Source: an uncultured Thiotrichales bacterium
GTDB lineage: Bacteria > Pseudomonadota > Gammaproteobacteria > UWMA-0217
Length of the DNA: 64,000 nt
Reading direction: 5' to 3'
NCBI GenBank assembly: GCA_964620675.1
Contig: CAZUJU010000001.1
Coordinates: 51,576 to 115,575, forward strand
Each line of letters starts with the position of its first letter. Position 1 is the first letter of the stretch. The notes under the pieces are model-generated. The model had not been told where the DNA came from. It made no database searches and saw only the letters and a list, made by a program, of their open reading frames with translations. The position numbers and the translations under genes are program-made. This document shows positions 17,874 through 62,785 of the stretch, piece by piece.

Positions 17874-18427
17874 ACGTTTTCTCCGAGATCGCGTTTTTTC
17901 TGATCGATACGCTGTTCACGCTGTTTATCGCGCTGTTCATGCTTCGGATGTTGCTCGGGTTGTCCCGGGCGGACTTCTACAATCCGTTCTCGCAGTTCAT
18001 CGTCACCGCGACCAACCCACTGCTCAAGCCCTTGCGCCGAATTCTGCCGCCGATCGGGCGCATCGATACCGCAGCGATCGTAATCATGCTGGCGTTGAAA
18101 CTGCTCCAGCTCGCGTTGTTGCTCATGGTCCAGAGCAAGGCGCCGGACCTTGTTTGGCTCGTCGTCACGGCGGTCGTTCAGCTGCTGACGATGTTGATTT
18201 ACCTCTACCTGATTTCGATCATCGTCGAGGCCATTCTGACCTGGGTCAATCCGACCGCGTTCTACGACCGTAAGAATCCGCTGGCTTCGATCCTGCACAG
18301 TATTAATATGCCGCTGCTGCATCCCCTCTCACAGATTGTGCCGCGGATCGGGGTCATCGACATCACCCCGCTGGTCGCGATCCTCCTGTTGAACATTCTT
18401 TTGATTGTCATCCGCTCGTTCGGCTAA
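17870..18427 (+). CDS. yggT: YggT family membrane protein.
   Basis: Two-repeat YggT hydrophobic architecture. ATGA overlap with proC. Confidence 0.8.
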   Translation: MNVFSEIAFFLIDTLFTLFIALFMLRMLLGLSRADFYNPFSQFIVTATNPLLKPLRRILPPIGRIDTAAIVIMLALKLLQLALLLMVQSKAPDLVWLVVTAVVQLLTMLIYLYLISIIVEAILTWVNPTAFYDRKNPLASILHSINMPLLHPLSQIVPRIGVIDITPLVAILLLNILLIVIRSFG

Positions 18428-18813
18428 TGGCCGACAACCGAGGCGCGCGAAGGAACCACGCGAAACGCGCGCCGAGTGCCACTCGAACTCGGCGCGACCT
18501 CGATGCGCCGCACGCGACCGCGACGACGCGCAACGGGTATCGCTGGGAGGGCAATTGCCTGATTCTCAATATCCGCGCTCAACCCCGGTCCTCGTGCGAT
18601 GAGTTCGGCGAGGTGCGGGACGGGTGGATCAAGCTGCGCATCACCGCGCCTCCGGTGGATGGCAAGGCCAACGCGCACATCCTGAAAGTGCTGAGTAAGC
18701 TGTTTCGTGTTCCGGTCCGGCGGGTTGAGCTGCTGAGCGGTGTGACGACGCGCGACAAGACGTTACGCATCGAGGCCCCGGAGCAACTCCCGTCGATGAT
18801 CCGTCGACGGTAA
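18427..18813 (+). CDS. yggU: DUF167 (YggU) family protein.
   Basis: ...ILNIRAQPRSSCDEFGEVRDGWIKLRITAPPVDGKANAHILKVLSKLFRV matches the DUF167 core. Overlaps the yggT stop. Confidence 0.7.
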   Translation: MADNRGARRNHAKRAPSATRTRRDLDAPHATATTRNGYRWEGNCLILNIRAQPRSSCDEFGEVRDGWIKLRITAPPVDGKANAHILKVLSKLFRVPVRRVELLSGVTTRDKTLRIEAPEQLPSMIRRR

Positions 18814-18974
18814 CAAAGTCAGGATTCGACGACCTCGTCGCGGAGCTTTCTCATAAAAAATTATTATCCGCATAAATTCTAGTTATCCAAGAATAAGCAA
18901 AAAGTATTTCCGCCCGGGACCTGGACCAGAGTACCTTTGTATCTATCGCTACCTACTAATGTACTAATTTTCCC

Positions 18975-21866
18975 ATGACCGCCCCATCGGAATCCGTTCA
19001 AGCCCCGAGCCGCGAGGTCAAGACCACGACCTGCTACATGTGCGCCTGCCGTTGCGGCATTCGCGTAACGCTGGAGAACGGGGAGGTACGGTACATCGAA
19101 GGGAACCCGGATCATCCGCTAAATCAGGGCGTGATCTGCGCCAAAGGGGCGTCGGGAATCATGAAGCAGTACTCGCCGGCGCGCCTGACCCTGCCGCTGC
19201 GGCGTAGATCTGGCGCCGAACGCGGCAGCGGTGAGTTCGAGGCGGTCAGCTGGGACGAGGCATTCGGCGTGCTTGCGGAACGTCTCGGCAAGATTCGCTT
19301 GACCGACCCGAAACGCTTCGCCCTATTTACCGGGCGTGATCAGATGCAGGCGTTGACCGGTTTGTTTGCGCGCCAGTTTGGCACCCCCAACTACGCCGCC
19401 CACGGCGGATTTTGTTCGGTGAACATGGCAGCCGGGCTGATCTACACCATCGGCGGATCGTTTTGGGAATTCGGCGGTCCGGATCTGGAACGCTCGAAAC
19501 TGTTCCTGATGTTCGGCACCGCGGAGGACCATCACTCGAATCCGCTCAAGGTGCAGATTGCCAAGTTCAAACGCCAAGGCGGGCGCTTTATCTCGATCAA
19601 TCCAGTGCGTACTGGGTATTCGGCCATCGCCGATGAGTGGGTCCCGATTAAGCCGGGTACCGACGGCGCGCTGCTGCTGGCATTGATTCATGAAGTCATC
19701 AAGCAAGGGCTATACGACCGGGAGTTTCTGGTGCGTTACACCAACGCGCCCGAACTGGTCAATCTCGATCCGAAAAGCAGCGAGTTCGGCATGTTTCTCC
19801 GCTTCGAGATCCCGCCCGAGGAAGGCTGCTTCGATCCGCAAAACAAGCTGTGGTGGGATCGCGAGTTGAACCGTCCGATCTCGACCCACACCGAAGGCGC
19901 CGATCCCTATTTGCTTGGCGAGTTTCGCTGGGACGACGGCACGCCGGTGAAACCGTCCTTCCAGTTGCTGAAGGAGCGTGTGGAGCAATACACCCCCGAG
20001 TGGGCCGCGGGTATCAGTGGCGTACCGGCCGAGACGATCCGCCGTCTCGCCCACGAGATGGGCGTTACCGCGCGCGATCAGCAGATCGAGTTGCCGATTG
20101 CGTGGACCGACGCCTGGGGCAAGGAACACAACTCGGTTGTCGGCAATCCGGTGTCGTTTCACGCCATGCGCGGCCTCGCAGCCCATTCCAACGGGTTTCA
20201 CACGATTCGGGCGCTTGGGATTCTGATGACGTTGCTGGGCACGATCGACCGCCCCGGCGGCTTTCGCCACAAGGCGCCGTTTCCGCGCCCGATTCCGCCG
20301 TGCCCGAAGCCGCCGAAAAGTGAGGCCGACGTCGTTCCCGGCGAGGTATTAAACGGCATGCCCCTCGGTTGGCCGGCCGACCCCGACGACCTCTTCGTCA
20401 GCGACGACGGCGAGCCGTTGCGGATCGACAAGGCGTTCTCCTGGGAGTATCCGCTCTCGGTGCATGGCCTGATGCATAACGTTATCACCAATGCCTGGCG
20501 CGGCGATCCGTACAAGATTGACACGCTGCTTCTATTCATGGCGAACATGGCCTGGAATTCGTCGATGAACACAGCGCGTGTGCGCGAGATGTTGACCGAC
20601 AAGGACGAGACGGGCGAGTACAAGATTCCGTTCCTGGTCGTATGCGATACGTTTCAGTCGGAGACCGTTGCGTTTGCCGATCTGGTCTTGCCGGATACGA
20701 CCTACCTCGAACGTTACGACGTGATGTCGATGCTCGATCGACCGATCTCCGAGTATGACGGGCCGGTCGACTCGGTGCGCATTCCGGTTGTCCCGCCGAA
20801 AGGCGAATGCAAACCCTTTCAGGAGGTGCTGATCGAACTGGGTTCGCGCCTCAAACTGCCCGCGTTCACGCGCCCCGATGGATCGCGCAAATTTCGCGAC
20901 TATCGCGATTTCATCATCAACTACGAAAGTGCACCGGGGTCCGGCATTGGTTTCCTGGCGGGCTGGCGCGGCACCGGCGGCGAAAAATATCTGCGCGGCG
21001 AGCCGAATCCGCGGCAATGGGAGATGTACGCAAAAAATAACTGCGTGTTCCACTATGAACTTCCGCGCTCGTATCAGTACATGCGCAACTGGAACCAGGG
21101 TTACCTGCAATGGGCGCAGGATCACGGCATGACCCGCTACGCCGAGCCGATCAACATTCACATCTACTCCGAAGTACTGCAGAAGTTTCGCCTCGCCGCC
21201 GAAGGCAAATCAGACGGACGGCAACCGCCGGAACGCCTTCGCGAGCGGGTGCGGACCTACTTCGATCCACTACCGTTCTACCATGAGCCGCTGGAATCCC
21301 AGCGTATCGATACCCAACAGTATCCGCTCAGCGCGATCACCCAACGGCCGATGGCGATGTATCACTCGTGGGATTCCCAAAATGCGTGGCTGCGCCAGAT
21401 CCATACCCATAACTACCTGTATCTCAATCCGCAGCTCGGCAAGGCGAACGGATTCAAGGACGGCGACTGGGTCTGGATCGAGTCGCCGTGGGGCAAGGTA
21501 CGCTGCATGTGCAGTTTCAGCGAAGCGGTCGAGCCCGGCACGGTCTGGACCTGGAATGCGATCGGCAAGGCCTCCGGCGCGTGGGCGTTGCATCCCAAGG
21601 CCAACGAATCGCAAAAAGGCTTTTTGCTCAATCACGTGATCACCGAGGAGCTTCCGGCCGGTGACGAAGGCACCACGATCTCGAACTCCGATCCGGTCAC
21701 CGGCCAGGCCGGCTGGTACGACGTGCGGGTGCGGGTTTATAAGGCCGAGCCCGGCGAACCCAAGCAGAGCTGGCCACAGTTTGGCGCGCTAAAGCCGTTT
21801 CCTGGGATGGAGAAGCGTCGCGGTAAATGGCAAGCCTACATCGCCGGTAAATTCGGCAGAAAATAG
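18975..21866 (+). CDS. soeA: Molybdopterin (Mo-bisPGD) oxidoreductase catalytic subunit with no Tat signal; SoeA-like cytoplasmic sulfite dehydrogenase large subunit.
   Basis: 963 aa. N-terminal 4Fe-4S Cys motif CYMCACRCG...C immediately after a 17-residue non-signal N-terminus with no RR twin-arginine motif. Molybdopterin oxidoreductase and C-terminal MopB domains. Size matches SoeA (~109 kDa). Confidence 0.6.
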   Translation: MTAPSESVQAPSREVKTTTCYMCACRCGIRVTLENGEVRYIEGNPDHPLNQGVICAKGASGIMKQYSPARLTLPLRRRSGAERGSGEFEAVSWDEAFGVLAERLGKIRLTDPKRFALFTGRDQMQALTGLFARQFGTPNYAAHGGFCSVNMAAGLIYTIGGSFWEFGGPDLERSKLFLMFGTAEDHHSNPLKVQIAKFKRQGGRFISINPVRTGYSAIADEWVPIKPGTDGALLLALIHEVIKQGLYDREFLVRYTNAPELVNLDPKSSEFGMFLRFEIPPEEGCFDPQNKLWWDRELNRPISTHTEGADPYLLGEFRWDDGTPVKPSFQLLKERVEQYTPEWAAGISGVPAETIRRLAHEMGVTARDQQIELPIAWTDAWGKEHNSVVGNPVSFHAMRGLAAHSNGFHTIRALGILMTLLGTIDRPGGFRHKAPFPRPIPPCPKPPKSEADVVPGEVLNGMPLGWPADPDDLFVSDDGEPLRIDKAFSWEYPLSVHGLMHNVITNAWRGDPYKIDTLLLFMANMAWNSSMNTARVREMLTDKDETGEYKIPFLVVCDTFQSETVAFADLVLPDTTYLERYDVMSMLDRPISEYDGPVDSVRIPVVPPKGECKPFQEVLIELGSRLKLPAFTRPDGSRKFRDYRDFIINYESAPGSGIGFLAGWRGTGGEKYLRGEPNPRQWEMYAKNNCVFHYELPRSYQYMRNWNQGYLQWAQDHGMTRYAEPINIHIYSEVLQKFRLAAEGKSDGRQPPERLRERVRTYFDPLPFYHEPLESQRIDTQQYPLSAITQRPMAMYHSWDSQNAWLRQIHTHNYLYLNPQLGKANGFKDGDWVWIESPWGKVRCMCSFSEAVEPGTVWTWNAIGKASGAWALHPKANESQKGFLLNHVITEELPAGDEGTTISNSDPVTGQAGWYDVRVRVYKAEPGEPKQSWPQFGALKPFPGMEKRRGKWQAYIAGKFGRK

Positions 21867-21881
21867 AGAGCGCACGAATCC

Positions 21882-22610
21882 ATGACTCAACTGGCTTTAG
21901 TGATCGATCTGAATGTTTGCGTCGGTTGTCACGCCTGCGTAACCAGCTGCAAGGAGTGGAATACCTCCGGCAGCGCCGGACCGCTGACGGATTTCAATCC
22001 CTACGCGGCCGACCCGACCGGTACGTTTTTCAATCGGGTTCAAACCTTCGAGATTGGCGAGTTCCCGCGGACCGAAACGGTGCACTTTCCGAAAAGCTGC
22101 CTGCACTGCGAAGAACCCCCGTGCGTACCGGTATGCCCCACGGGGGCCAGCTATAAGCGCGCCGAGGACGGCATCGTCCTGGTGGATTACGACAAATGCA
22201 TCGGCTGCAAATATTGTTCGTGGGCCTGCCCGTATGGAGTCCGCGAACTCGACGAGCAGCAGAAGGTCATGAAGAAATGCACGCTGTGCGTCGACCGGCT
22301 CTACGACACCTCCTTGCCAGAGCGCGAGCGCAAGCCCGCTTGCGTACTCGCCTGCCCGACCAGCGCGCGGCTCTACGGCGACGTGCATGATCCCGATTCG
22401 GAGGTTTCGTGCGCAATCCGCGACAACGGCGGCTACCAACTGATGCCGGAGTGGGGGACCCATCCCGCTAACCACTATCTGCCGCGACGCAAGACCCAGA
22501 TCCGCATCCATCCCGACGAACTCGTGCGGGCAGACAATCCGCTCAAGAAGGAAGATCTGCGCAAATCGAGCGTCAGCGACAAGCCGACGCTGGACGATGT
22601 GGCCTGGTAA
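21882..22610 (+). CDS. soeB: Four-cluster 4Fe-4S ferredoxin-type subunit (DmsB/PsrB family), SoeB-like.
   Basis: 242 aa with four CxxCxxCxxxCP-type motifs (CVGCHACVTSC, CLHCEEPPCVPVCP, CIGCKYCSWACP, CTLC...CVLACP) and no signal peptide. 16 bp downstream of the large subunit. Confidence 0.65.
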   Translation: MTQLALVIDLNVCVGCHACVTSCKEWNTSGSAGPLTDFNPYAADPTGTFFNRVQTFEIGEFPRTETVHFPKSCLHCEEPPCVPVCPTGASYKRAEDGIVLVDYDKCIGCKYCSWACPYGVRELDEQQKVMKKCTLCVDRLYDTSLPERERKPACVLACPTSARLYGDVHDPDSEVSCAIRDNGGYQLMPEWGTHPANHYLPRRKTQIRIHPDELVRADNPLKKEDLRKSSVSDKPTLDDVAW

Positions 22611-22631
22611 CGCGTACCCCTCGGAGAACTC

Positions 22632-23615
22632 ATGCACCCCGCTCTGTCCGTCATTCTGCTCACGACCCTGATCGGCGCCGGTCAGGGGCTGTTTCTCGCT
22701 CTGTTTACCGCACAGATCTACGCTTGGGATGGCCTGCTGCCCACCCAAAGCGGACCGTCCTTCTACGGACCCGGCAGCCTGCTCGCGTTGATACTCTTGA
22801 TCGCCGGTCTGATCGCATCGTTCTTCCACCTGGGGCGCCCCGAACGCGCTTGGCGCAGCGCGACGCAGTGGCGGACGTCGTGGCTCTCGCGCGAGGTGAT
22901 CGTATTGCCGATCGCGATGCTCCTGATTCTTGGATTTGGCGCAGCGCACTCTCTGGAGCTTGAGCGGCCCCTGTTCACACTGCCAGGCGGCAAACCGGTC
23001 GACCCTACCCTGATCATCGGGGTGCTGGCCATGCTCGCGGTCCTTGCGCTCTATCTGTGTACCGCGATGATCTATGCCAGTCTGAAATTCTTGCAGGAAT
23101 GGCACAGCGCACTCACGGTGATCAACTATCTGCTACTGGGCGTTGCATCGGGCTTTACCCTGGCCGCCGCCCTCACCGGCGCGACCGGTAACGAGCTTGC
23201 CGGCTTCTTCACGGGTTGGGCAATCGTGCTGACGCTGCTCGCAATGATCGCACGGGTCGCCACACTGATTCGAAATCGCGGCCTGCGTTGCAAGTCCACC
23301 CTGCGCACCGCAATCGGCGTGCGCCATCCGCGGATTCAACAAAAGTCGCAGGGCTTTATGAGCGGCTCATTCAACACCCGGGAGTTCTTTCACGGCAAGC
23401 GTCCGGCGTTTCTCAAGGGTATCAAGTGGACGTTCCTCGTTATGGCCTTTGTTCTGCCGGTCGCGTTGCTGATCGCCGCCTACCTCGGTGTCGCCCTACA
23501 ATACCTGCCACTGCTCGCGTTTGCGGTTCAGTACCTCGGCCTGCTCGCTGAGCGTTGGTACTTTTTCGCGGAAGCCAATCATCCGCAGAATCTGTATTAC
23601 CAGGCGATCGCCTGA
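22632..23615 (+). CDS. soeC: NrfD/PsrC/DmsC-family polytopic membrane anchor, SoeC-like.
   Basis: 327 aa, about 8 predicted TM helices, no heme-binding or other Cys motifs. Completes the A-B-C operon. Confidence 0.6.
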   Translation: MHPALSVILLTTLIGAGQGLFLALFTAQIYAWDGLLPTQSGPSFYGPGSLLALILLIAGLIASFFHLGRPERAWRSATQWRTSWLSREVIVLPIAMLLILGFGAAHSLELERPLFTLPGGKPVDPTLIIGVLAMLAVLALYLCTAMIYASLKFLQEWHSALTVINYLLLGVASGFTLAAALTGATGNELAGFFTGWAIVLTLLAMIARVATLIRNRGLRCKSTLRTAIGVRHPRIQQKSQGFMSGSFNTREFFHGKRPAFLKGIKWTFLVMAFVLPVALLIAAYLGVALQYLPLLAFAVQYLGLLAERWYFFAEANHPQNLYYQAIA

Positions 23616-23837
23616 TCCCCCTTGCGGTCACTCGGCGGCGGGCTGCGGCCCTGATCGCTGCAGGCAATGGTCGCGCGGATTCGTCGACATCCCGACCGCT
23701 GTCATCAGCGCAGCCTCGCGCCGCGCCGTGTCCGAGAATATGATTGAGTTCACAGCGACCGAGTCGCAAGCCGGCTATGCTTCTGGTTCGAACCCGCGAG
23801 CAGGCTGCTCAAACCGGAAAACAACCAATAATTCTTC

Positions 23838-25049
23838 ATGCGAACGACTTATCTCAAGCACCTCCTCCCAATCATTGTCGCAGTCCTCGTGGTCGGTCTG
23901 TTCGCGCCCCAACCGCTGGTCGCGGCACCGGCATCGCCACTGGACAGTGTCAGTGGACTGAAGCGTTCGAGCCTGCTCGTGCTCGATCAACACGGCAATG
24001 AAAAATTCTCCGTACGCCCGGATGAATTCATGGTGCCGGCGTCAACGCTGAAGATCATGACGGCGCTGCTCGCACTTGAGCACTGGGGTCGCGACTTTCG
24101 CTTTCATACTGATTTTTATATCGACAAGAAAAAGTTTCTTTGGATCAAGGGATATGGAGATCCGTACCTCATCTCGGAAGAGATTACCCGCATTGCTGCG
24201 CGCTTGAAAAAGGCAGGTGTCAAACGCGTTTCCGGTATCGGCGTCGATGGTTCTTTTTTCGCGAAATCCATCTCGATCGATGGCCGCGACCGTAGCCTCA
24301 GTCCCTATGACGCGCCCGTCGGAGCAGTGTCGGCCAATTTCAATACAGTCTTTTTCATCAATGATCCGGTTAACGGGGTGTCTTCGGCTGAACCGCAAAC
24401 GCCGCTCACACCGGTGGTCCACGAGTTGGTGCAGGAATATTCCGACTTCGGTGAACAACGCTTGAATCTGGGTGATCCGAACCGAGTGCCACGCTACTTC
24501 GCCGAGCTATTGCGGGCCAAACTGGGCGCCATCGGGGTCACCGTCGGGGAGCCGATCAAGCTCGGCGCCGTTCCCAAGGGCAGCAAGCGCGTTTATCGCC
24601 ACTTCAACCGTCATACGCTGCAGGAAATCGTCCGCGGCATGCTCAAGGCATCGAATAATTTTATCGCCAATCAACTGTTTCTGATGCTTGGCGCGCAGAC
24701 TTATGGCGCACCCGCCAACCTTGATAAATCGCAACGCTATGCCGCGGAGCGGATCCGCGCGATTTTCGACTGGGAAGAGTTCGATATGGTTGAAGGCTCG
24801 GGCCTGTCGCGCCGCAACCGATTCACCGCCCGCCAACTCGTGACGCTGCTGCAATACTTCAAACCGTACCGCGACCTGATGCCGTCGAATCAACGCTCGA
24901 TCCTCGCCAAAACCGGCACCCTCACTAACGTCAGTTGCTATGCGGGTTACGTCGAGTCGGGTAAGGACTGGGCACCCTTCGCGTTGCTGATCAATCAGCC
25001 AGTCGAACGCGGATTGCGCTATCGTCTCGCACGCTATTTGGTCGACTAG
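23838..25049 (+). CDS. D-alanyl-D-alanine carboxypeptidase/endopeptidase, PBP4 (peptidase S13) family.
   Basis: Signal peptide, an S-T-L-K active-site motif (PASTLKIMTAL) and S13-family conserved blocks. 403 aa. Confidence 0.7.
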   Translation: MRTTYLKHLLPIIVAVLVVGLFAPQPLVAAPASPLDSVSGLKRSSLLVLDQHGNEKFSVRPDEFMVPASTLKIMTALLALEHWGRDFRFHTDFYIDKKKFLWIKGYGDPYLISEEITRIAARLKKAGVKRVSGIGVDGSFFAKSISIDGRDRSLSPYDAPVGAVSANFNTVFFINDPVNGVSSAEPQTPLTPVVHELVQEYSDFGEQRLNLGDPNRVPRYFAELLRAKLGAIGVTVGEPIKLGAVPKGSKRVYRHFNRHTLQEIVRGMLKASNNFIANQLFLMLGAQTYGAPANLDKSQRYAAERIRAIFDWEEFDMVEGSGLSRRNRFTARQLVTLLQYFKPYRDLMPSNQRSILAKTGTLTNVSCYAGYVESGKDWAPFALLINQPVERGLRYRLARYLVD

Positions 25050-25460: not shown

Positions 25461-27302
25461 ATGTTCACTAGCTTTATGAGCCGACCCCGGCTCACTGCGA
25501 TCTCTTGCGCAACCGCGCTGGCCGTTTCTTTTCCGATAATCGCCGCCGAAACCACCACGCTCACCCCAGTCCAAGTGACCGCGAATCGCCATGCTCAGTC
25601 GAGCGATGAAATTCTCGCGCCAGTTTTGGTCCTGACACGAGACGATATCGAGCGCTCAACGGCACTCGATGTGCCCGGACTACTCCGCGGTCAACCGGGG
25701 CTGCACGTGGCGACGAGCGGCGGCTTGGGCAAGCAAACCTCGGTGTTCATGCGCGGCGCGAACTCCAACCATGTTCTGATCCTGGTCGACGGTGTCCGCT
25801 ACGGATCGGCCACGGCAGGCGCGGTTTCCTGGGAGCACCTCCCGCTCGCGCTGATCGAACGTATCGAAATTGTGCGTGGCCCGCGTTCGAGTGTTTACGG
25901 ATCCGAGGCAATCGCCGGCGTCATTCAAATCTTCACCCGGGCCAGCGTTACCGAGCCCGGGCTCGACGCGGCCATTGAGGTAGGCTCCAACGACACCCGC
26001 CAGCTCACTGCAGGCATCACGCAGCGCCATGGGGATTCGAGCTATTCGGTACGCGCATCGACACTGCGCAGCGCCGGTATCGATGCCTACGAGGGGGTAG
26101 AGCCCGATCGAGATGGTTACCGCAATGATGCGTTCAACGCCGGGTTCCAGTTCGCGCCGACGACACGGAGCACGGTCGGCGCAACCCTGTTGCATGCCAA
26201 AGGACGCACTGAATTTGACGATACCTTCGGTTCAAGCGCGAACTCCGAGACGCGCTTCGTGGAACAATCGGCGCAAATGACATGGGATCTCGCCGCCACC
26301 CGGCAGTGGTCATTTCAAGCGCGGATCGGGGGTAGCCGCGATGAACTCGACTCCGAAGCAAACGGAGCCGACACCTATAAGAGCCATAGTGACGTCAACG
26401 AGTTCGGGGCTCACGCGCGATATCGCGGTAGGAACGGCTTGGAGGTATTGGCGGGCGCCGATTTGCGGCACGACCGTGTCGAATATCGCGACGCTTTCGG
26501 CGGCGATTCCGAAACGTTCGCGCGCCGCTCGCGAGATAACGGTGGCGTTTTTCTGACCGGCGGATCCCCCTTTGCCAGCGGTGGCTTGGCACAGGCCAGT
26601 CTGCGCTTCGACGACAATGACGCCTACGGCGAACATACCAGCGGTAACCTTGAGCTGGGTTGGGAGCTGCGGCCAGCAACCCGGGTCGCGGTTCGTTTTG
26701 GCCAAGCGTTCAAGGCACCAACCTTTCTCGACCTGTACTATCCCGGCTTCAGCAATCCCGACCTCAAACCGGAACAATCCCGAACCGTCGAATTAGGACT
26801 CAAGCATCGCACCGGCGGGATCAACTTGGAGACGCAAATCTATCGCTCGCGAATCAGCGAGCTGATTCAGCGCGCACAAAATATCGGCGAGGCCGAGATC
26901 AACGGCTTTGAATTGGTGTTGGATAAGACCTGGGGCGACTGGTTGACGGGTCTGCGCTTCAGCCATACCCGAACCGAGGATCTCGACCGCGGCGAACGTC
27001 TGATTCGAAGGCCGGTAAACGTCCTGCGCCTGGAGGCGAGTCGGAGCTGGAACGCATGGCAATTCGACGCCGACGCGACTTACACCGGCGCCAGCAAAGA
27101 TCGTGACTTCAGCGCATTTCCGGCGAGAACGGTCACGCTTTCAGATTTCGTGCTCGTCAACCTGCAGCTTCGAAGGGACTTCGGCGATCGCATCAGAGGC
27201 TTTGTCAAGCTCGCAAACCTGATGGATGAGGACTACCAGACGATCTTTGGGTATCGCAACGACGGCCGCTCCGTGAGTGTGGGTGCGGCACTGCGGTACT
27301 GA
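25461..27302 (+). CDS. btuB: TonB-dependent outer-membrane receptor, BtuB-like vitamin B12 transporter.
   Basis: 613 aa with signal peptide, plug domain (MRGANSNHVLILVDGVRYGS) and beta-barrel. Ends in the aromatic C-terminus ...AALRY. Directly downstream of the cobalamin riboswitch. Confidence 0.8.
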   Translation: MFTSFMSRPRLTAISCATALAVSFPIIAAETTTLTPVQVTANRHAQSSDEILAPVLVLTRDDIERSTALDVPGLLRGQPGLHVATSGGLGKQTSVFMRGANSNHVLILVDGVRYGSATAGAVSWEHLPLALIERIEIVRGPRSSVYGSEAIAGVIQIFTRASVTEPGLDAAIEVGSNDTRQLTAGITQRHGDSSYSVRASTLRSAGIDAYEGVEPDRDGYRNDAFNAGFQFAPTTRSTVGATLLHAKGRTEFDDTFGSSANSETRFVEQSAQMTWDLAATRQWSFQARIGGSRDELDSEANGADTYKSHSDVNEFGAHARYRGRNGLEVLAGADLRHDRVEYRDAFGGDSETFARRSRDNGGVFLTGGSPFASGGLAQASLRFDDNDAYGEHTSGNLELGWELRPATRVAVRFGQAFKAPTFLDLYYPGFSNPDLKPEQSRTVELGLKHRTGGINLETQIYRSRISELIQRAQNIGEAEINGFELVLDKTWGDWLTGLRFSHTRTEDLDRGERLIRRPVNVLRLEASRSWNAWQFDADATYTGASKDRDFSAFPARTVTLSDFVLVNLQLRRDFGDRIRGFVKLANLMDEDYQTIFGYRNDGRSVSVGAALRY

Positions 27303-42159: not shown

Positions 42160-42648
42160 TCAGTGGGACGTCGATTCGGCGGCAGCCGCGTTCTCCGTGG
42201 CTTTTTGGCGTTCGATCAAGTGCTGTTGGTACAACGCATCGAAGTTGATCGGCGCAAGTAACATTTGCGGAAAGCCGCCCTTCACCACGAGATCACTGAT
42301 CGCTTCGCGCGCGAACGGATACAGGATATTTGGGCAATAGCTGCCTAGCAGTTGGGCCAACTGATCGTCAGGATACCCTGAGATGCTGAATATCCCCGAT
42401 TGCTTGAGTTCCACCAGATAGGCCGTTTCGTCTTCCGATTTGACCGTAACGGTGAGATTGAGATCCACCTCGTAGACGCGTTCGGCGAGACGCTTGAACG
42501 CCGAGTTAAGATCCACGTTGGTGGCGGGTTTGAACGCCTTGGTGAAGATCGCCGGTGCGTTAGGCGTCTCCCAGGAAACGTCCTTCAGATAAACGCGCTG
42601 GATCTCGAAAACGACTTGCGGTTGCTGATCTTGGGCGGCATCGGCCAT
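42160..42648 (-). CDS. secB: Protein-export chaperone SecB.
   Basis: FEIQRVYLKDVSWETPNAP aligns with E. coli FQIQRIYTKDISFEAPNAP. ATG at 42648 with an AAGGA RBS. Confidence 0.85.
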   Translation of the reverse strand: MADAAQDQQPQVVFEIQRVYLKDVSWETPNAPAIFTKAFKPATNVDLNSAFKRLAERVYEVDLNLTVTVKSEDETAYLVELKQSGIFSISGYPDDQLAQLLGSYCPNILYPFAREAISDLVVKGGFPQMLLAPINFDALYQQHLIERQKATENAAAAESTSH

Positions 42649-42677
42649 AGTGAATTCCTTAGCTTTCGTGGTGTTAG

Positions 42678-43118
42678 TCAATTGATGTACTGGCGCAGCC
42701 ACGCCTTGAGCTGGGTAACGTTCATTGCCCCAGACATGCGCGATCGCTCCGCGCCGTTTTCGAACAGGATCAACGTTGGAATGCTACGGATCCCAAACGG
42801 CTCAGCGGCCAACGGGTGAGCGTCGGTATTTACCTTGGCAAAGCGCAGGCCTGGCTCTAGATCACGCGCCGCTTGCGCGAACGCTGGCGCCATCATCTTA
42901 CAGGGACCACACCAAGGCGCCCAGAAATCGACGACCAAAGGTATGCGATCGCGCTCAATATGTCGCACCAAGCGGTTCGAATCGAGTTCCAGCGGATTTC
43001 CGTTAAACAGGGGCTGGTGACAGGATCCGCAACGTGCATCATCGTTGAGCCGTTGCTTGGGCACGCGGTTGGTTTTACCGCACTCGGGACAGACGATTTC
43101 AAGCGAAGCTTGCGCCAC
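42678..43118 (-). CDS. trxC: Thioredoxin 2 (TrxC-type, with N-terminal zinc-finger).
   Basis: CPECGKTNRVP...CGSCHQ zinc-binding pair followed by WAPWCGPCK. Confidence 0.8.
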   Translation of the reverse strand: MAQASLEIVCPECGKTNRVPKQRLNDDARCGSCHQPLFNGNPLELDSNRLVRHIERDRIPLVVDFWAPWCGPCKMMAPAFAQAARDLEPGLRFAKVNTDAHPLAAEPFGIRSIPTLILFENGAERSRMSGAMNVTQLKAWLRQYIN

Positions 43119-43123
43119 GGTGT

Positions 43124-43381
43124 TTAGCCCTCAAGCAGCGGATCCAACTTTCCCGCTCGATCGAGTGCCGCTAAATCGTCGTATCCACCGACGTGAAAGT
43201 CGCCGATAAAAATCTGCGGCACGGTAACGCGACCAGAGCGTTGAACCATCAGCTCGCCCTGAGCAGGGTCACGATCGACGCGGACTTCTTCATAGCCCGC
43301 GTTTTTGCGCTGCAACAACTGCTTGGCCCAAATGCAATAGGGGCAAAACGCCGAGGTGTAAATCGTGATCTTGCCGGCCAC
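43124..43381 (-). CDS. grxC: Glutaredoxin 3.
   Basis: ITIYTSAFCPYCIWAKQLL (CPYC). A GTG start at 43381 gives 85 aa; the track M at 43420 overlaps the rhodanese gene. Confidence 0.8.
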   Translation of the reverse strand: MAGKITIYTSAFCPYCIWAKQLLQRKNAGYEEVRVDRDPAQGELMVQRSGRVTVPQIFIGDFHVGGYDDLAALDRAGKLDPLLEG

Positions 43382-43383
43382 TG

Positions 43384-43809
43384 TTATTTCTTCTTGAGCG
43401 GTAGGTTTTCCGACTGCCAAGCAACGACGCCGCCGCGGAGGTTGTAAACATCTTCGAACCCCTGTTTTTTCAACAGGCTACAAGCCAATTGAGAGCGGTT
43501 CCCGGAGCGACAAAATGCCACTACCTTTTTACCTTTGAACTTGTCCAGCTCACCCATGCGAGACTTGAGTAGGCTCATCGGGAGGTGTTTGGCGCCATTA
43601 ATCGTGCCCTGACCGACCTCGCTGTCTTCGCGGACATCGAGCAAAAACGCCGCATCGCCGTTCATCAACCGAACCGTCTCTTGCGGTGAGATCTCTTTGA
43701 AATTACGCGTTAAACGCCGGATCTCAGTCCACAGTGTCAGCGCTAGCAGCGCAAAAAAACCCAACACGAGAAACAGATGTTTCTCCGCGAAAACGATATA
43801 TTCCTGCAT
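43384..43809 (-). CDS. yibN: Membrane-anchored rhodanese-domain protein (YibN-like).
   Basis: N-terminal TM helix then a rhodanese fold with the active-site CRSGNRS loop. 141 aa. Confidence 0.75.
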   Translation of the reverse strand: MQEYIVFAEKHLFLVLGFFALLALTLWTEIRRLTRNFKEISPQETVRLMNGDAAFLLDVREDSEVGQGTINGAKHLPMSLLKSRMGELDKFKGKKVVAFCRSGNRSQLACSLLKKQGFEDVYNLRGGVVAWQSENLPLKKK

Positions 43810-43852
43810 CGAAGAACCCTTGATCGCAACAGAAGTGCGCGATGCGCCCCGA

Positions 43853-44185
43853 TCAGGTGCAGAACACCTCTTGCATCATATCAATCAGACGCAACGTGCG
43901 CGCATCGCCGACTCGGTAGTATACCTTGTTTGCATCCTTGCGAGCCGCGAGAATACCCTTGTCACGCAAAATGGCGAGATGTTGGGAGATGTTGCTCTGC
44001 GAGGTACCGACACATTCGACGATATCTTGCACGCTAACTTCACGATCGCCCAGCGTGCAAAGGATCCGCAACCGCAGTGGGTGCGACATGGCTTTCAAGG
44101 AACGCGAGGCACGTTCGATGTCTTCTTCCCGCTTCATGAGTTCGGAGGCACGAAACCCGACGCACCCGGTTTTTTGGTCGATCAA
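43853..44185 (-). CDS. ArsR/SmtB-family transcriptional regulator, BigR/SqrR-like by Cys spacing.
   Basis: HTH core HPLRLRILCTL...VQDIVECVGTSQSNISQHLAILRDKGIL. Two Cys (ILCTL and C-terminal EVFCT) are 66 residues apart. Proposed TTG start at 44185 (GAGGG RBS, 110 aa); alternative ATG at 44137 (94 aa). The track start at 44314 would run through the operator palindrome. Confidence 0.65.
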   Translation of the reverse strand: MIDQKTGCVGFRASELMKREEDIERASRSLKAMSHPLRLRILCTLGDREVSVQDIVECVGTSQSNISQHLAILRDKGILAARKDANKVYYRVGDARTLRLIDMMQEVFCT

Positions 44186-44207
44186 TGCGAGACCCTCATT
44201 TTGTATT

Positions 44208-44221
44208 TTACTATATAGTAA
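44208..44221. promoter_or_regulatory. Perfect 14-bp AT-rich palindrome TTACTATATAGTAA in the divergent arsR-like/envC intergenic region; candidate operator.
   Basis: Seen directly. About 23 bp upstream of the proposed regulator start. Confidence 0.4.
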
Positions 44222-44280
44222 TATTACATCCAAACTGGCGGAATGAATAGACGATTGGTTTTTTTTCAGTTGCGTGTCAT

Positions 44281-45462
44281 ATGAACCGTCCGAACGCGAT
44301 CCGAATTTGGGCACTGCGACCGGGCAAGCAGCGAAAACTCCTCGCGATTTGCGTGGCGTTGGCTTGCGTAGCGAGCCCCGCGTTTGCTGCGGAGGATGGC
44401 AAGATGTCGAACATCAAGAAAGAGCTCGACTCGATCGTCGAAAAGTTGCGTTCGCTCAAAGGCCAACAATCATCGCAGCAAAGTGACCTCGGCAAGCGCG
44501 AGGCCGCCGTAGTCGCCATCGATCGTGAGATCTCGCAAACCGTGCGCCAATTGCGGACTTTGGAACGCGACATCGCGAAGCAGCAAGCTGAGCTCAAGCG
44601 TCTGGAAAGTCAGCGCGCGGCGCGCGCGACCGAAATCGATCGCCATAGGACTCTGCTCGGTAATCATCTAACGGCTTTGTTCCAGTCGGGACAACACGTG
44701 CAGTGGCATGCGGCGCTTGAACCACAACGATTGAACGAGTTTTTGCGAACACAGACCAACCTGCACTATCTCCAAAGTGCGCGTGAGCGCAAGGTGGAGC
44801 AATTGCGCAATCAAACCACCGAACTCGACCGTATCGCACGGGAAATCCAGGTGACTCGCGAGGCTTTGGCGCGCGAGCAAGTAACACTTCGCGGGCAACA
44901 GGAAACCTTCAAGGCCCAAAAGAAGCAGCAAACCCAGGTAGTCGCCGAACTCAAGCGTGAGCTAGGCACGACTCAGGCCAATATCAATCAACTCAATACC
45001 GATCGTCAGGCGCTCAACGATTTGCTCAAACGCTTGCGCGCAGAAGCCCAAAAGCGACAAGCAGACGGCAGGGGATCCCACTTCGACGGAGATTCGCCCT
45101 TCGCCAAGTTAAGGGGCAAGCTACCTTGGCCCGCCAAGGGTAAATTGGTGCAATACGCCAGTGGGGTAAAAATTCAGGCTGCCGAGGGTACGGAAGTTCG
45201 CGCGATCGGTGAAGGCGAGGTGGTGTTTTCCGATTGGATGCGCGGCCTCGGTTGGCTCGCAATCGTCAATCACGGGTCCGGTTACCTCTCGCTCTACGGC
45301 CACAATGAAGCGCTTTTGGTCAAGCAGGGCGAGCGGGTCAAGGCCAGCGCGGTTATCGCGACAGCCGGGCGAAGTGGTGGTCAGTCCGAGTCCGGGGTTT
45401 ACTTTGAACTGCGGGAAAACACAAAGGCGCTCGATCCCTTTGTTTGGTGCGTACGCGGCTAG
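44281..45462 (+). CDS. envC: Murein hydrolase activator EnvC (coiled-coil + LytM/M23 domain).
   Basis: Signal peptide, long Q/E/R/L-rich coiled coil, and a C-terminal degenerate M23 domain (GLGWLAIVNHGSGYLSLYGHN). Confidence 0.8.
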   Translation: MNRPNAIRIWALRPGKQRKLLAICVALACVASPAFAAEDGKMSNIKKELDSIVEKLRSLKGQQSSQQSDLGKREAAVVAIDREISQTVRQLRTLERDIAKQQAELKRLESQRAARATEIDRHRTLLGNHLTALFQSGQHVQWHAALEPQRLNEFLRTQTNLHYLQSARERKVEQLRNQTTELDRIAREIQVTREALAREQVTLRGQQETFKAQKKQQTQVVAELKRELGTTQANINQLNTDRQALNDLLKRLRAEAQKRQADGRGSHFDGDSPFAKLRGKLPWPAKGKLVQYASGVKIQAAEGTEVRAIGEGEVVFSDWMRGLGWLAIVNHGSGYLSLYGHNEALLVKQGERVKASAVIATAGRSGGQSESGVYFELRENTKALDPFVWCVRG

Positions 45463-51893: not shown

Positions 51894-53297
<1,404 letters not shown>

Positions 53298-53316
53298 TTA
53301 AATTTGGATGGGTTCA

Positions 53317-54174
53317 CTAGACCGCTGCGGCGCCACCGACGATTTCGGAGATCTCCTGCGTAATCGCGGCCTGGCGTGCTTTGTTGTAAATCAGTTGAAG
53401 CTCGTCAATGAGTTCGCCGGCGTTGTCGGACGCGCTTTTCATCGCAACCATGCGCGCGGCCATTTCGCAGGCCACGTTTTCAACAACCGCCTGATAGACC
53501 ACGGATTCGACGTATCGCGTCAGCAGGCCGTCCAGCACTTCCTTCGAGTCGGGTTCGTAAATGTAATCCCAATAGTGCTTTAGCGATTCTTCGCCGGAGG
53601 CCTCAATGGGGACCAGCGTTGAAATTTTTGCCTGTTGCGTCATCGTGTTGACGAACTCATTTTCGACGAGATCGATGCGATCGATCGCGCCTGCTTCATA
53701 CGCATCAAGCATCACCTTGATGGTCCCGATAAGATCATCGACGTGGGGAACATCGCCCAAATGAATCACGGTTGAGCGGACGTCGCCGAGTCGCTTGAAG
53801 AACCCCTGGGCTTTGGTACCGATCAAGCAAAACTCGACCTCCGTACCTTGCTCGCGCCATTGCTTGACCGCGAAAACGGCCTTTTTGAACAAGTTGATGT
53901 TCAGGCCGCCACACAGTCCGCGATCGGTGGAGACCACGATCAGACCGACCCGTTTTACTTCTCGCTCGATGAGATACGGGTGCTTGTACTCTGGATGTGC
54001 CATTGCCAAGTGACTGATAACACCTCGAATTTTTTGCGCATAGGGCTTCGATGCCGCCATCCGGTCTTGCGCCTTGCGCATTTTCGAGGCCGCGACCATT
54101 TCCATCGCTTTGGTGATCTTTTGAGTACTTTTGATACTCTTGATCTTGGTTCGAATCTCTTTGGCGCCTGCCAT
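53317..54174 (-). CDS. atpG: ATP synthase F1 gamma subunit.
   Basis: 285 aa. [37 protein letters not shown]-terminus. Confidence 0.9.
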
Positions 54175-54186
54175 GATCGTTACCGC

Positions 54187-55728
54187 TTACCAGCTGTGAG
54201 AGTTTTTAAATGACTCCAACGCCGCACGGATGCTCTGCGCGATTTCATCGTTGAAATCGCCGCTTGCGTTGATCGAATCGAGCAACGCACCCTGCTCGGA
54301 TCGGATGTAGCTCAGCAGCGCCGCTTCAAAATCGACGACTTTGTTGACTTCGACATCGTCGAGGAAACCCTCGTTGACCGCAAACAGCGAAAACGCCATC
54401 TCCGCGACCGACAACGGTGAGTATTGCGGCTGCTTCATCATTTCCGTTACCCGACGCCCGCGTTCGAGTTGCTTGCGGGTCTGTTCATCGAGATCGGATG
54501 CAAATTGCGAAAACGCCGCAAGTTCGCGGAACTGAGCAAGTGCGAGGCGCACGCCGCCGCCGAGTTTCTTGATGATCTTAGTCTGCGCGGCGCCCCCAAC
54601 GCGAGACACCGACAGACCGGCGTTGATCGCCGGACGGATGTTCGCATTGAACAGATCGGTTTCGAGAAAGATCTGGCCGTCGGTAATCGAGATCACGTTG
54701 GTCGGAACGAATGCGGAAACGTCGCCGGCCTGGGTTTCGATAATCGGCAACGCCGTCAGCGATCCAGTCTTGCCTTTGACCTCACCCTTCGTATAGGCCT
54801 CGACGTAAGCCTCATTGACCCGGGCCGCCCGTTCGAGCAAACGGGAATGGAGATAGAAAACATCGCCAGGATAGGCTTCCCGGCCGGGCGGGCGACGCAG
54901 CAGCAGTGAGACTTGACGATAGGCCCACGCCTGTTTCGTCAGATCGTCGTAGACGATCAATGCGTCTTCGCCGCGGTCGCGGAAATATTCACCCATTGAG
55001 CAGCCGGAATACGGGGCGATGTACTGCATCGCAGCCGACTCGGCCGCGGATGCGGCAACCACGATGGTGTGCTCCATCGCGCCATGCTCTTCGAGCTTGC
55101 GTACGACGTTCGCGATCGAAGAGGCCTTTTGGCCGACGGCGACGTATACGCACGTAATACCGGTGCCGCATTGATTGATGATTGCATCGATCGCGACGGC
55201 GGACTTACCGGTCTGGCGGTCACCGATAATCAACTCGCGTTGGCCACGGCCGATTGGCACCATCGCGTCGATGGCCTTCAAGCCGGTTTGTACCGGTTGC
55301 GAAACGGACTTCCGTTCGATGACTCCCGGCGCAATTTTTTCGATGGGCTCGTAACCGTCGGCCTCAATCGGACCGCGGCCGTCGATCGGGTTGCCGAGGG
55401 CGTCCACCACGCGCCCGAGCAAACCGCGCCCAACCGGAACTTGTAAGATTCGGCCGGTGCATTTCGCAGTATCGCCTTCGGTAATGTGTTTGTAATCCCC
55501 GAGCACCACCGCGCCGACCGAATCACGCTCCAGGTTCAGCGCAAGGCCAAAGGTGTCGCCGGGAAACTCAATCATTTCACCGGCCATGACTTCGCCCAGA
55601 CCATGCAGGCGAACAATGCCGTCAGTGACGTTGACGACGGTTCCCTCGGTGCGCGCCTCGGATACGACTTCGAAATCGGCGATTCGCTTCTTGATTAATT
55701 CACTGATTTCAGTGGAATTTAATTGCAT
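54187..55728 (-). CDS. atpA: ATP synthase F1 alpha subunit.
   Basis: GDRQTGKS Walker A. 513 aa. Confidence 0.95.
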
Positions 55729-55742
55729 TTGAAAATTCCTCG

Positions 55743-56279
55743 TTAGCGATTCATGACGCTGGTCAGTTTATCCAGGCGGCCTTTGATCGAACCATCGATA
55801 ACCAAATCCCCGGCGCGCACGATGGCACCGCCAATCAAACTGGGATCTATTCGGGTTGAGGTCTTCACCTCGCGACCCAAGCGTTGCTGCAACGCATTCG
55901 CGATCGCCTGATGCTGCGTTGGATCGATTTCCATGGCAGTGATGATCTCGGCTTCGACTACGCCTTCGGCTTCGGCACGCAGATTCTCGTAAAGCGCGGA
56001 GATTTGCGGCAGTACCGCCAGACGTCCATTGTCCGCCAATACACGAACGAGGTTCTTCGCGGACTCGTCGATCTGCACCCCGCAGGACTTGATCAATAAG
56101 CCGGCCGCTTCTTCGCGACTGAGACTCGGTTGCTGCAGCATGCGGTGCAACGAGGGGTCCGCGGCGAATGCCGACAAAACCTCAAGGCTTTCCGACCAAG
56201 ACTCGAGCTTGCCGCTATCGCGGGCCGTTTCAAACAGAGCCCGAGCGTAGGGTCGGGCGACGGTGTTTAAGTCAGACAT
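55743..56279 (-). CDS. atpH: ATP synthase F1 delta subunit.
   Basis: 178 aa OSCP/delta family ([10 protein letters not shown]...). Confidence 0.85.
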
Positions 56280-56289
56280 GATTGGGCCT

Positions 56290-56760
56290 TCAGATCCGGG
56301 CGATCAAGTCGTCCAGCACCTGGCTATGGACTTTCGGGTCGATCTCCTTGCCGATGATTTTCTTCGCGGCGTCGAGCGCGATCGACGAGACCTGGGCGCG
56401 CAGCTGCTCACGCGCCTGATTGACCTCTTGCGAAATTTCAGCTTGCGCTGCGTTTTTCAGGCGGTCGCCTTCATCGCGCGCCGCGACTTTCGCTTCGTCG
56501 ACGATTTCGCCGGCACGGCGCTGAGCTTGGGCGATGATCTCGGCCGCTTGTTGCTTGGCGGCGCGCATCGAATCGCCAGCGCGCTCATGGGCGAGTTCCT
56601 GTTCATGCCGACCACGTTCGGCGGCGGCGAGACCTTCGGCGATACGCTTTTTACGATCTTCGAGCATCTTGATCATCGGATCCCAGAGCACCGCCCTGAT
56701 GAACCATACCAAGATGGCGAAAACCAGCATCTGACCGATAAGAGTAGCGGTGATGTTCAC
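56290..56760 (-). CDS. atpF: ATP synthase Fo subunit b.
   Basis: 156 aa. N-terminal TM then a long charged coiled coil. Confidence 0.85.
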
Positions 56761-56812
56761 GACGACGCTCTCTCTTTGCTAGTGATTGAGGATGTTCGCG
56801 ACCAGCCGGTAT

Positions 56813-57097
56813 TCACCCGCCGAGCGCCGCCTTGGCCGCTCCCACGAAGGGGTTCGCAAAGATGAACCACATCGAGATACCCAGCACGATCATCGGGAAT
56901 GCTTCCATCAATCCGCCGGTGAACAACATCTGACCCGTCAATTGCGGACGCATTTCCGGCTGCCTGGCGATGCCTTCCATGAATTTCGAGCAGATCAGGC
57001 CCCACCCGAGTGCCGAGCCGAGTCCGGCGGCAGCAAGAATGATCCCTACGCCTAGGGCGGTGTACGCGTAAATCATGGCTAGTTCAGCAGGACTCAT
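56813..57097 (-). CDS. atpE: ATP synthase Fo subunit c.
   Basis: Two-TM hairpin with ...KFMEGIARQPEM... loop and a C-terminal FANPFVG. ATG at 57097 with an AGGAGA RBS; the track start at 57103 is TTG. Confidence 0.85.
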   Translation of the reverse strand: MSPAELAMIYAYTALGVGIILAAAGLGSALGWGLICSKFMEGIARQPEMRPQLTGQMLFTGGLMEAFPMIVLGISMWFIFANPFVGAAKAALGG

Positions 57098-57134
57098 GAT
57101 CAAGATCTCCTAGATTGGACGTTGATTTTAAAAG

Positions 57135-57995
57135 CTAGTGGTGTTCGTCGGATTGATGCGCCAGACCCAGATACACGATCGTCAGGAGCATGAAGATAAA
57201 CGCTTGGAGGCTAATCACCAAGATGTGGAAGATCGCCCACAAGGTACCGAGCACGATGTGGCCAAGGCTCGCGTAGATCGAAAACGAGAGCAGCGCGATC
57301 AATAGGAACAGCAACTCGCCGGCAAACATGTTTCCAAACAGACGCAGCGCGAGGCTCACGGGTTTGGCGATTTCCTCGATCGTGGTCATCACGATGTTGA
57401 TCGGGATCGCGTATTTTCCGAACGGGTGAAACAGAAACTGCTTGGCGTAGCCGACCGCACCCTTGACCTTGATGTTGTAGTAGATACTCAACGCAAAGAC
57501 GGAGAGCGCAAGAGCGAAGGTGGTATCGAGGTTCGTCGTCGGGACGACCTTCATGTATACGTGGTGGGGATCCGCACCGAACCAACCGGCAATGGTGGTC
57601 GTGATGGCCGGAATCAGGTCGACAGGTACCAGATCCATCGCATTCATCAGGAACACCCAGATGAAGATTGTTAGCGAGAGCGGTCCTATGATGGGATTCG
57701 AGCCGGGGAAAATATCCTTGATTTGTTGGTTGACGAACTCCACGATCGCTTCGACAACGTTTTGAAACCCTGAAGGATTATCGGCACTGAGGTTTCTCCC
57801 GACGCGCCAGGCGAAATATCCGAACAGAACTGCGAGCGCAACACTCCAGAGAAAGGTGTCGATGAAAAATGCGCCAAAATCAACGATGCTTGACGGTTTA
57901 TGGGTTTCGGGATCACATCCGATGCACCAGTTCGTCAAGTGGTGCTGGATATACTGCACCGGATTTGAGGAAATCGGCTCTTCGACAGTACTCAC
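57135..57995 (-). CDS. atpB: ATP synthase Fo subunit a.
   Basis: 286 aa polytopic protein. Conserved LRLFGNMFAGE motif containing the essential Arg. Confidence 0.9.
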   Translation of the reverse strand: MSTVEEPISSNPVQYIQHHLTNWCIGCDPETHKPSSIVDFGAFFIDTFLWSVALAVLFGYFAWRVGRNLSADNPSGFQNVVEAIVEFVNQQIKDIFPGSNPIIGPLSLTIFIWVFLMNAMDLVPVDLIPAITTTIAGWFGADPHHVYMKVVPTTNLDTTFALALSVFALSIYYNIKVKGAVGYAKQFLFHPFGKYAIPINIVMTTIEEIAKPVSLALRLFGNMFAGELLFLLIALLSFSIYASLGHIVLGTLWAIFHILVISLQAFIFMLLTIVYLGLAHQSDEHH

Positions 57996-58011
57996 GTCGG
58001 TCCTCTTGTTG

Positions 58012-58368: not shown

Positions 58369-58503
58369 GGCTTGCTATGCGTTAACCACGCGCTGCCCGG
58401 ATCCTGGGACGCCGCCGCCGTTGCGCGCGTACGCTCATCGTCGCGTGCGGCAGTATAGGGAGCATCCTTAAACGGGTCAATAATCGAGCAACCAAGCATT
58501 GGA

Positions 58504-59364: not shown

Positions 59365-59368
59365 GCTG

Positions 59369-60151: not shown

Positions 60152-60154
60152 CGC

Positions 60155-62703: not shown

Positions 62704-62785
62704 TCGGTATATCGAGTTTAGATAGTCTAGGGCGTGCGGGCTGATGGGCCAAGATTACCACGCCGTCCGGTAACGTGCGGTCGGG

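Follow-up and report, generated by a model that had tools for sequence, protein, structure and literature searches.

The SoeABC sulfite:quinone oxidoreductase is known from Allochromatium vinosum (Alvin_2491-2489), Aquifex aeolicus (aq_1234/1232/1231), and Ruegeria pomeroyi (SPO3559-3557). Its genes, in A-B-C order, encode a catalytic subunit with a molybdenum-bis(pyranopterin guanine dinucleotide) (Mo-bisPGD) center and an FS0 iron-sulfur cluster but no twin-arginine translocation (Tat) leader, a four-cluster ferredoxin, and a heme-less NrfD/DmsC-like membrane anchor. The A. vinosum subunits have masses of ∼109, 27, and 36 kDa. Genetic work in A. vinosum, as cited in PMC6397845 and PMC6382920, assigns the complex to sulfite oxidation. 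Among solved structures there is no SoeABC; the best relatives are the three subunits (PsrA, PsrB, and PsrC) of polysulfide reductase from Thermus thermophilus. The stretch of DNA analyzed here (the window) comprises 64,000 nucleotides (nt) of contig CAZUJU010000001.1 from a metagenome-assembled genome (MAG) of an uncultured Thiotrichales bacterium, and contains three co-directional open reading frames (ORFs) that very probably form a soeABC operon for a cytoplasm-facing sulfite:quinone oxidoreductase. Gene structure, cofactor motifs, the lack of an export signal, clade membership, and a topology based on charge bias come from the present analysis, while the substrate, the direction of catalysis, and quinone as acceptor are drawn from family knowledge (A. 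vinosum genetics and A. aeolicus biochemistry). With respect to the known SoeABC systems there is no difference of substance.

Identity of the enzyme and its relatives

The three ORFs are separated by gaps of 15 nt (soeA-soeB) and 21 nt (soeB-soeC), and the operon has a GC content of 60.5%, like its surroundings. A first-pass annotation of this DNA had delimited the same ORFs in A-B-C order, with masses of ∼109, ∼27, and ∼36 kDa that agree with those computed here (Table 1), and had named them a probable SoeABC rather than a Psr, Phs, Ttr, or Dms enzyme. The closest relatives bear this out. SoeA is 76 to 94% identical to annotated SoeA proteins of sulfur oxidizers, reaching 94% with a protein named SoeA in a sister MAG and ∼80% with SoeA of Sulfurivermis, Thiolapillus, and Chromatiaceae. 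Where the nearest relatives (79 to 94% identity) have been named, the NCBI name “sulfite dehydrogenase subunit SoeA” is carried by those from the sister Thiotrichales MAG, Sulfurivermis fontis, Thiolapillus, Thiosocius, Thiococcus pfennigii, Thiorhodococcus minor, and Candidatus Thiodiazotropha, close relatives at JGI are named “sulfite dehydrogenase (quinone) subunit SoeA,” and the names given to homologues of the anchor are SoeC or DmsC/YnfH family. In a quick neighbor-joining (NJ) tree of named SoeA proteins, representatives of more distant clusters, and Escherichia coli DmsA, the window protein was placed beside that of the sister MAG, inside a tight signal-less clade with members from Chromatiaceae, Thioalkalivibrio, Sulfurivermis, and others.

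Models of the rival families scored far below their cut-offs, in agreement with the tree. The best curated match of SoeA was the PhsA/PsrA model NF012032 (236.3 bits against a cut-off of 694, with the alignment starting at model position 42), with lower scores for the DmsA models (177.9 against 777.7 and 128.4 against 1600), ArrA (133.2 against 1600), and TtrA (129.2 against 1750).

Gene order is uniform among relatives. A genome scan with one genome per species yielded 80 loci from alpha-, beta-, and gammaproteobacteria, and the A-B-C order was observed in all 74 that were long enough to judge, with identities of 68 to 94% for SoeA, 74 to 95% for SoeB, and 47 to 88% for SoeC. The only interrupted operon was that of a Sulfuricella MAG, where a 759-residue ORF resembling a PAS-domain histidine kinase lies between soeA and soeB (L015:8858-11137); this could be a real insertion or an artifact of MAG assembly.

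The cofactor motifs expected of such a complex are present in SoeA and SoeB. SoeA matched the Pfam domains Molybdop_Fe4S4 (PF04879, residues 15–66), Molybdopterin (PF00384), and Molydop_binding (PF01568). Its predicted molybdenum ligand is Cys147, opposite which the alignments place the cysteine at position 173 of PsrA (2vpw_A, T. thermophilus) and, in ArrA (6cz7_A), likewise a cysteine; both are molybdenum ligands. SoeB exhibited 16 cysteines arranged as four motifs, which begin at residues 13, 73, 106, and 133, matched four-cluster ferredoxin domains in Pfam (including Fer4_11), and had PsrB as its best solved relative (2vpw_B, E 5e-39). The string CVGCH in SoeB is part of the first ferredoxin motif and not a heme site. 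SoeC contains two cysteines and no CxxCH motif, consistent with the earlier description of a PsrC-like anchor without heme motifs, and its fold matched those of PsrC and ActC. The assignment to the NrfD family in the same description did not stand in Pfam terms: SoeC matched PF04976 (DmsC, 58.6 bits) and gave no match to NrfD (PF03916), although the two families belong to one structural superfamily and some close homologues carry both.

Topology of the complex

The orientation of the complex was approached from the N termini of SoeA and SoeB and from the anchor. SoeA begins MTAPSESVQAPSREVKTTTCYMCACRCG, with 19 residues before the first Fe-S cysteine, and neither SoeA nor SoeB contains an RR pair within its first 60 residues. 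The soeA start codon is unique: six codons upstream there is a stop in the same frame, and the codons between it and the ATG include no ATG, GTG, or TTG. A longer N terminus, and with it a Tat leader from an upstream alternative start, is therefore impossible. The earlier observation that SoeA has neither a twin-arginine motif nor room for a signal peptide thus holds, and it extends to the family: when the upstream frames of 78 homologues were read back to the preceding stop, there was no room for a Tat leader in any of them. In upstream open frames, two “Tat-like” regular-expression matches for SoeA were rejected, one lying before the Met and the other being a basic stretch, PRREIK, without a hydrophobic region. 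Alignments to Tat-exported families began at model positions 38–43 but at SoeA residues 8–16, such that the leader segment is missing. With T. thermophilus PsrA, a Tat-exported and periplasmic protein, the first aligned pair is residue 3 of the leaderless SoeA and residue 23 of the deposited chain. SoeA is ∼200 residues longer than PsrA by insertions, and identities to PsrABC are ∼15 to 30%.

SoeB, with 12 residues before its first cysteine, was likewise confirmed to have no signal, and its N terminus, MTQLALVIDLNVC, recurs at the start of the homologues listed, out of 79 examined. This part of the earlier argument does not discriminate, however, since PsrB and E. coli DmsB also have no signal although their enzymes face the periplasm. 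Eleven “Tat-like” matches among SoeB homologues were discarded, all lying before the conserved Met in high-GC noncoding or out-of-frame sequence.

SoeC exhibited eight hydrophobic segments in a hydropathy scan, with matching long helices in an AlphaFold2 model (predicted local distance difference test [pLDDT] 82, predicted template modeling score [pTM] 0.85). Lys and Arg residues are distributed with extreme asymmetry: 21 on the face with both termini and loops 2, 4, and 6, versus 2 on the opposite face. The same bias was observed in 71 SoeC homologues without exception (mean 18.8 versus 1.1), whereas E. coli DmsC, analyzed in the same way as a control, displayed the reverse (4 versus 8). By the positive-inside rule, SoeC is predicted to be inverted relative to other NrfD-like anchors, which would place its quinone site and SoeB-binding face on the cytoplasmic side. 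An inverted SoeC had already been predicted (PMC8076601), with which the charge bias agrees. Together with the impossibility of a Tat leader, this pattern sustains the cytoplasmic orientation originally proposed for the enzyme.

The bias is concentrated in loop 6, a 61-residue basic segment that also sets SoeC apart from PsrC. Loop 6 averages 11 Lys and Arg residues across the 71 homologues and has many invariant columns (e.g., F247-N248-T249-R250-E251), while its counterpart in E. coli DmsC is 23 residues long and lacks Lys and Arg altogether. In the AlphaFold2 model, loop residues 229–251 fall below a pLDDT of 50. Loop 6 is a candidate SoeB-docking and topology-determining element.

The quinone-site residues are conserved as well. 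In an hhalign alignment, SoeC His66 and Glu88 lie opposite His65 and Glu87 of E. coli DmsC, whose quinone-site residues, including these two, are needed for quinol oxidation; Ser6, His65, Ser82, Ser85, and Glu87 are the set listed for A. aeolicus SoeC. The window protein has Ser6, His66, Ser83, Ser86, and Glu88, of which Ser86 is present in 68 of the 71 homologues and the other four are invariant, so that the residues listed for the Aquifex anchor are all conserved. E. coli DmsABC thus shares with this locus an anchor of the Pfam DmsC family, the His/Glu pair, and a signal-less B subunit, but its DmsA, 29% identical to SoeA, carries a twin-arginine leader (MKTKIPDAVLAAEVSRRGLVK...).

These observations also bear on the alternative that the complex is a Psr/Phs/Ttr/Arr/Dms-type respiratory reductase facing the periplasm, with a signal peptide that escaped notice. 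In its favor, each of the three subunits is related to its counterparts in those families, and Tat-bearing proteins (P0321 and P0317, the latter with a probable leader) are found among the nearest relatives beyond the core Soe clade. The in-frame stop and short SoeA N terminus, the lack of a leader throughout the homologues, the charge bias of SoeC opposite to that of DmsC, and the low scores of every named periplasmic family refute this alternative at the sequence level, and we assign it a negligible probability.

P0317 (1074 residues, 43% identical to SoeA) and P0321 (1183 residues, 41% identical, starting MSIRRRHFLQG) align with SoeA over the full length and, beyond the core Soe clade, are among its closest relatives to do so. 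They are longer than SoeA, were placed by the NJ tree as sister to the Soe clade, and reached no NCBIfam cut-off. They are presumably periplasmic and, from their sequences, look like an uncharacterized family of periplasmic SoeA-like enzymes. Because the sister group is Tat-bearing, the Soe clade may have descended from a Tat-exported periplasmic ancestor whose leader was lost and whose anchor was turned over in the membrane, with loop 6 then serving as topology determinant and SoeB dock, although we consider this less likely than not.

Direction of catalysis and physiological role

In the proposed mechanism, sulfite formed in the cytoplasm would be oxidized to sulfate at the SoeA Mo-bisPGD center, with Cys147 as predicted ligand. 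Two electrons would pass by way of FS0 and the four SoeB clusters to the quinone site of SoeC (Ser6, His66, Ser83, Ser86, and Glu88). With SoeC inserted the other way up from DmsC and PsrC, the quinone site and the surface that docks SoeB would be cytoplasmic, and energy would be conserved downstream, on re-oxidation of the quinol.

Several points weigh against reading the locus as a sulfite-oxidizing SoeABC. The evidence for the enzyme in the source organism is at the level of sequence. None of the three subunits reached the cut-off of any NCBIfam model, and NCBI labels them generically (“molybdopterin oxidoreductase family protein” for SoeA and “dimethyl sulfoxide reductase anchor subunit family protein” for the anchor). 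The AlphaFold2 model of SoeA, built with 32 homologues that were all at least 76% identical, had a mean pLDDT of 51.6, too poor for inspection of the active site or a fold search. SoeA proteins of A. vinosum, A. aeolicus, and R. pomeroyi were not among the 80 loci or the 240 homologues listed, and the link to characterized enzymes is transitive. The Aquifex enzyme also reduces elemental sulfur (S0), thiosulfate, and tetrathionate in vitro (PMC12102312), and for this reason sequence does not fix the direction in vivo. No dsr, sHdr, sox, apr, or sat genes were found in the window and ∼10 kb on either side (∼84 kb of contig).

The transitive link runs through Thioalkalivibrio sp. ALJ3, whose SoeA, SoeB, and SoeC are 77, 81, and 58% identical to those of the window (locus L028). 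With A. vinosum queries, soeABC was found in all 75 Thioalkalivibrio genomes surveyed, as a single copy in the group of ALJ3 (PMC6382920), and this survey together with the identities connects the window operon to the genetically characterized A. vinosum enzyme. Thiococcus, Thiorhodococcus, and Thioflavicoccus were retrieved by a second protein search with a Chromatiaceae seed, which did not return A. vinosum.

The in vitro activities of the Aquifex enzyme raise the question of whether the same complex, still facing the cytoplasm, physiologically takes electrons from quinol and reduces S0 or polysulfide, thiosulfate, tetrathionate, or sulfite. Such a role is in keeping with PsrABC as closest solved relatives and PhsA as best-scoring curated model. 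Yet the PhsA score amounts to one third of the cut-off, the A. vinosum genetics cited above point to oxidation, and soeABC is universally kept in sulfur oxidizers with dsr or sHdr (PMC6397845). In relatives, soeABC adjoins the oxidative AprBA-Sat and DsrE2 genes: above curated cut-offs, DsrE2 was detected beside soeABC at 12 loci, Sat at 8, AprA and AprB at 7 each, and MoaA at 8, and an HdrA/QmoA-like flavoprotein, not above a curated cut-off, was detected at 10. These neighbors support a role of soeABC in sulfur metabolism, and a physiological reductase is, on balance, very improbable. The window operon is set apart from the ∼10 to 15% of soeABC loci with DsrE2, AprBA, or Sat alongside, as none of DsrE2, the HdrA/QmoA-like protein, Sat, MoaA, AprA, or AprB is encoded next to it.

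With sulfite oxidation by SoeABC as the preferred reading, the lifestyle of the organism is a separate matter. The first-pass annotation had concluded that the locus implies dissimilatory sulfur oxidation; this is not established, given the empty sulfur-gene search and the presence of SoeABC in heterotrophs as well. SoeABC could instead be non-lithotrophic, oxidizing sulfite from the breakdown of organosulfonates or cysteine, or detoxifying it. In the heterotroph R. pomeroyi, soeABC lies beside pta and close to the taurine regulator gene tauR (PMC4334477), and further Soe loci were found in Magnetospirillum, Paraburkholderia, and Rhodobium. The genes of the window and of the ∼20 kb outside it are otherwise all of the housekeeping kind, and the flanks of the operon are shared with one sister MAG only, which suggests a self-contained module. 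On the other side, the MAG is classified in Thiotrichales, the nearest SoeA sequences are all from sulfur oxidizers or chemosynthetic symbionts, and sulfur-oxidation genes are usually scattered, such that their absence from ∼84 kb says little. We regard the non-lithotrophic role, which concerns the inference about lifestyle and not the identity of the enzyme, as unlikely but deserving of some weight, and a sulfur-oxidizing lifestyle as plausible in view of the Thiotrichales label and the nearest relatives of SoeA.

Genomic setting and significance

SoeA, SoeB, and SoeC are each 100% identical to proteins of a MAG labeled “Thiotrichales bacterium” by NCBI, and a stromatolite metagenome assembly at ENA (SRR3310977, PRJNA315555) contains the identical sequence. 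The genome had earlier been called Pseudomonas-syntenic, a description to be replaced by that of a Thiotrichales MAG; the pilT-yggS-proC-yggT-yggU arrangement is present in both the source MAG and the sister MAG. The operon does lie, as first described, between the yggSTU cluster and a PBP4/btuB block. Upstream neighbors encode YggS, ProC, YggT, and YggU (DUF167), and downstream neighbors encode PBP4 (TIGR00666, above cut-off) and a BtuB-like TonB-dependent receptor. The “btuB” label of the latter is supported by a cobalamin riboswitch directly 5' of the ORF and by the vitamin B12 receptor as its best model, albeit below cut-off. ORFs on the opposite strand within soeABC (e.g., 21897-23105, 402 residues) were dismissed as shadows of high-GC coding sequence, all homology being on the + strand.

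The sharply AT-rich region noted before soeA was also recovered: its GC content is 41%, versus 59% for the window, a value within the bottom 0.05% for stretches of 161 bp. The promoter and operator of soeA are probably located here, together with the 5' leader. From ∼18850 to the ATG the leader is strongly conserved in the sister MAG (L075), while sequence just 5' of ∼18850 could not be aligned. TTATCC is repeated within positions 18850-18974, the two copies (TTATCCGCA and TTATCCAAG) being 17 nt apart; the first copy has one mismatch to a DnaA-box consensus. No Shine-Dalgarno sequence was detected before the soeA ATG. A scan of 18400-24000 for sigma-70 promoters and terminators gave two promoter-like and six terminator-like sites, compared with 1.8 and 5.1 in shuffled sequence, and within this interval there was neither a + strand promoter-like site 5' of soeA nor a terminator 3' of soeC. 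Rfam models run over the whole window revealed no RNA element 5' of soeA and no molybdenum cofactor (Moco) riboswitch.

Table 1. Coordinates of soeABC features and of other elements in the window
Feature	Position	Strand	Description
AT-rich intergenic region before soeA	18814-18974	+	161 bp; 41% GC
soeA	18975-21866	+	963 amino acids (aa), 108.9 kDa; Mo-bisPGD catalytic subunit without signal peptide
SoeA FS0 [4Fe-4S] motif	19032-19139	+	Cys20, Cys23, Cys27, Cys55; PF04879; all four invariant in 32 homologues
SoeA Cys147 codon	19413-19415	+	Predicted molybdenum ligand; invariant in 32 homologues within HGGFCSVN
soeB	21882-22610	+	242 aa, 27.1 kDa; four-cluster ferredoxin subunit
soeC	22632-23615	+	327 aa, 35.8 kDa; heme-less 8-helix quinone-binding membrane anchor, predicted N-in/C-in
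SoeC quinone-site segment	22827-22895	+	His66 to Glu88, flanks loop 2; hhalign with E. coli DmsC
SoeC loop 6	23253-23435	+	Residues 208-268; 61 residues, 14 Lys + Arg, highly conserved; predicted cytoplasmic
Cobalamin riboswitch, RF00174	25171-25398	+	103.7 bits, gathering threshold 31.5
TonB-dependent receptor ORF	25461-27302		Best model TIGR01779 (vitamin B12 receptor), 446 bits, cut-off 599.7
Anti-hemB small RNA (sRNA) match, RF02837	30854-30942	-	50.5 bits, gathering threshold 49.5 (marginal); between engB and polA
Compact redox cluster	42600-44300	-	ArsR-type regulator, rhodanese, glutaredoxin, thioredoxin, SecB, GpsA
Replication-origin neighborhood (with ∼8 kb past the right end)	51900-64000		atp operon, parAB, gidAB, mnmE

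The remainder of the window is housekeeping sequence, including pilGHIJ-chpA, gshB, tonB, pyrBC, pilT/U, polA, glnA-ntrBC, secB, glmSU, the atp operon, parAB, gidAB, and mnmE. Just past its right end lie yidC, rnpA, rpmH, dnaA, dnaN, recF, and gyrB; as these origin genes adjoin the window, soeABC is situated ∼45 kb from the dnaA/replication-origin region of a chromosome. Two further elements were recorded. The redox cluster is similar to yibN-grxC-secB-gpsA, a common arrangement, and probably has no specific tie to sulfur oxidation, and the anti-hemB sRNA family was described from Burkholderia.

The locus is a routine orthologue of a known and widely distributed enzyme, whose copy in the sister species is already annotated as SoeA. 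Its importance lies mainly in annotation: the three proteins can safely be renamed SoeA, SoeB, and SoeC. Two results go slightly beyond the literature consulted, both as properties of the family and not of this locus. The size and consistency of the SoeC charge bias, concentrated in loop 6, give simple quantitative support to the published prediction of a SoeC inverted relative to DmsC and PsrC, and the Tat-bearing sister group of the Soe clade belongs to no curated family. If the proposed descent from a periplasmic ancestor were true, the Soe family would represent a natural topology inversion of a whole respiratory module. For the stromatolite Thiotrichales population, the renaming means that the metabolic model gains a step in which sulfite is oxidized in the cytoplasm.

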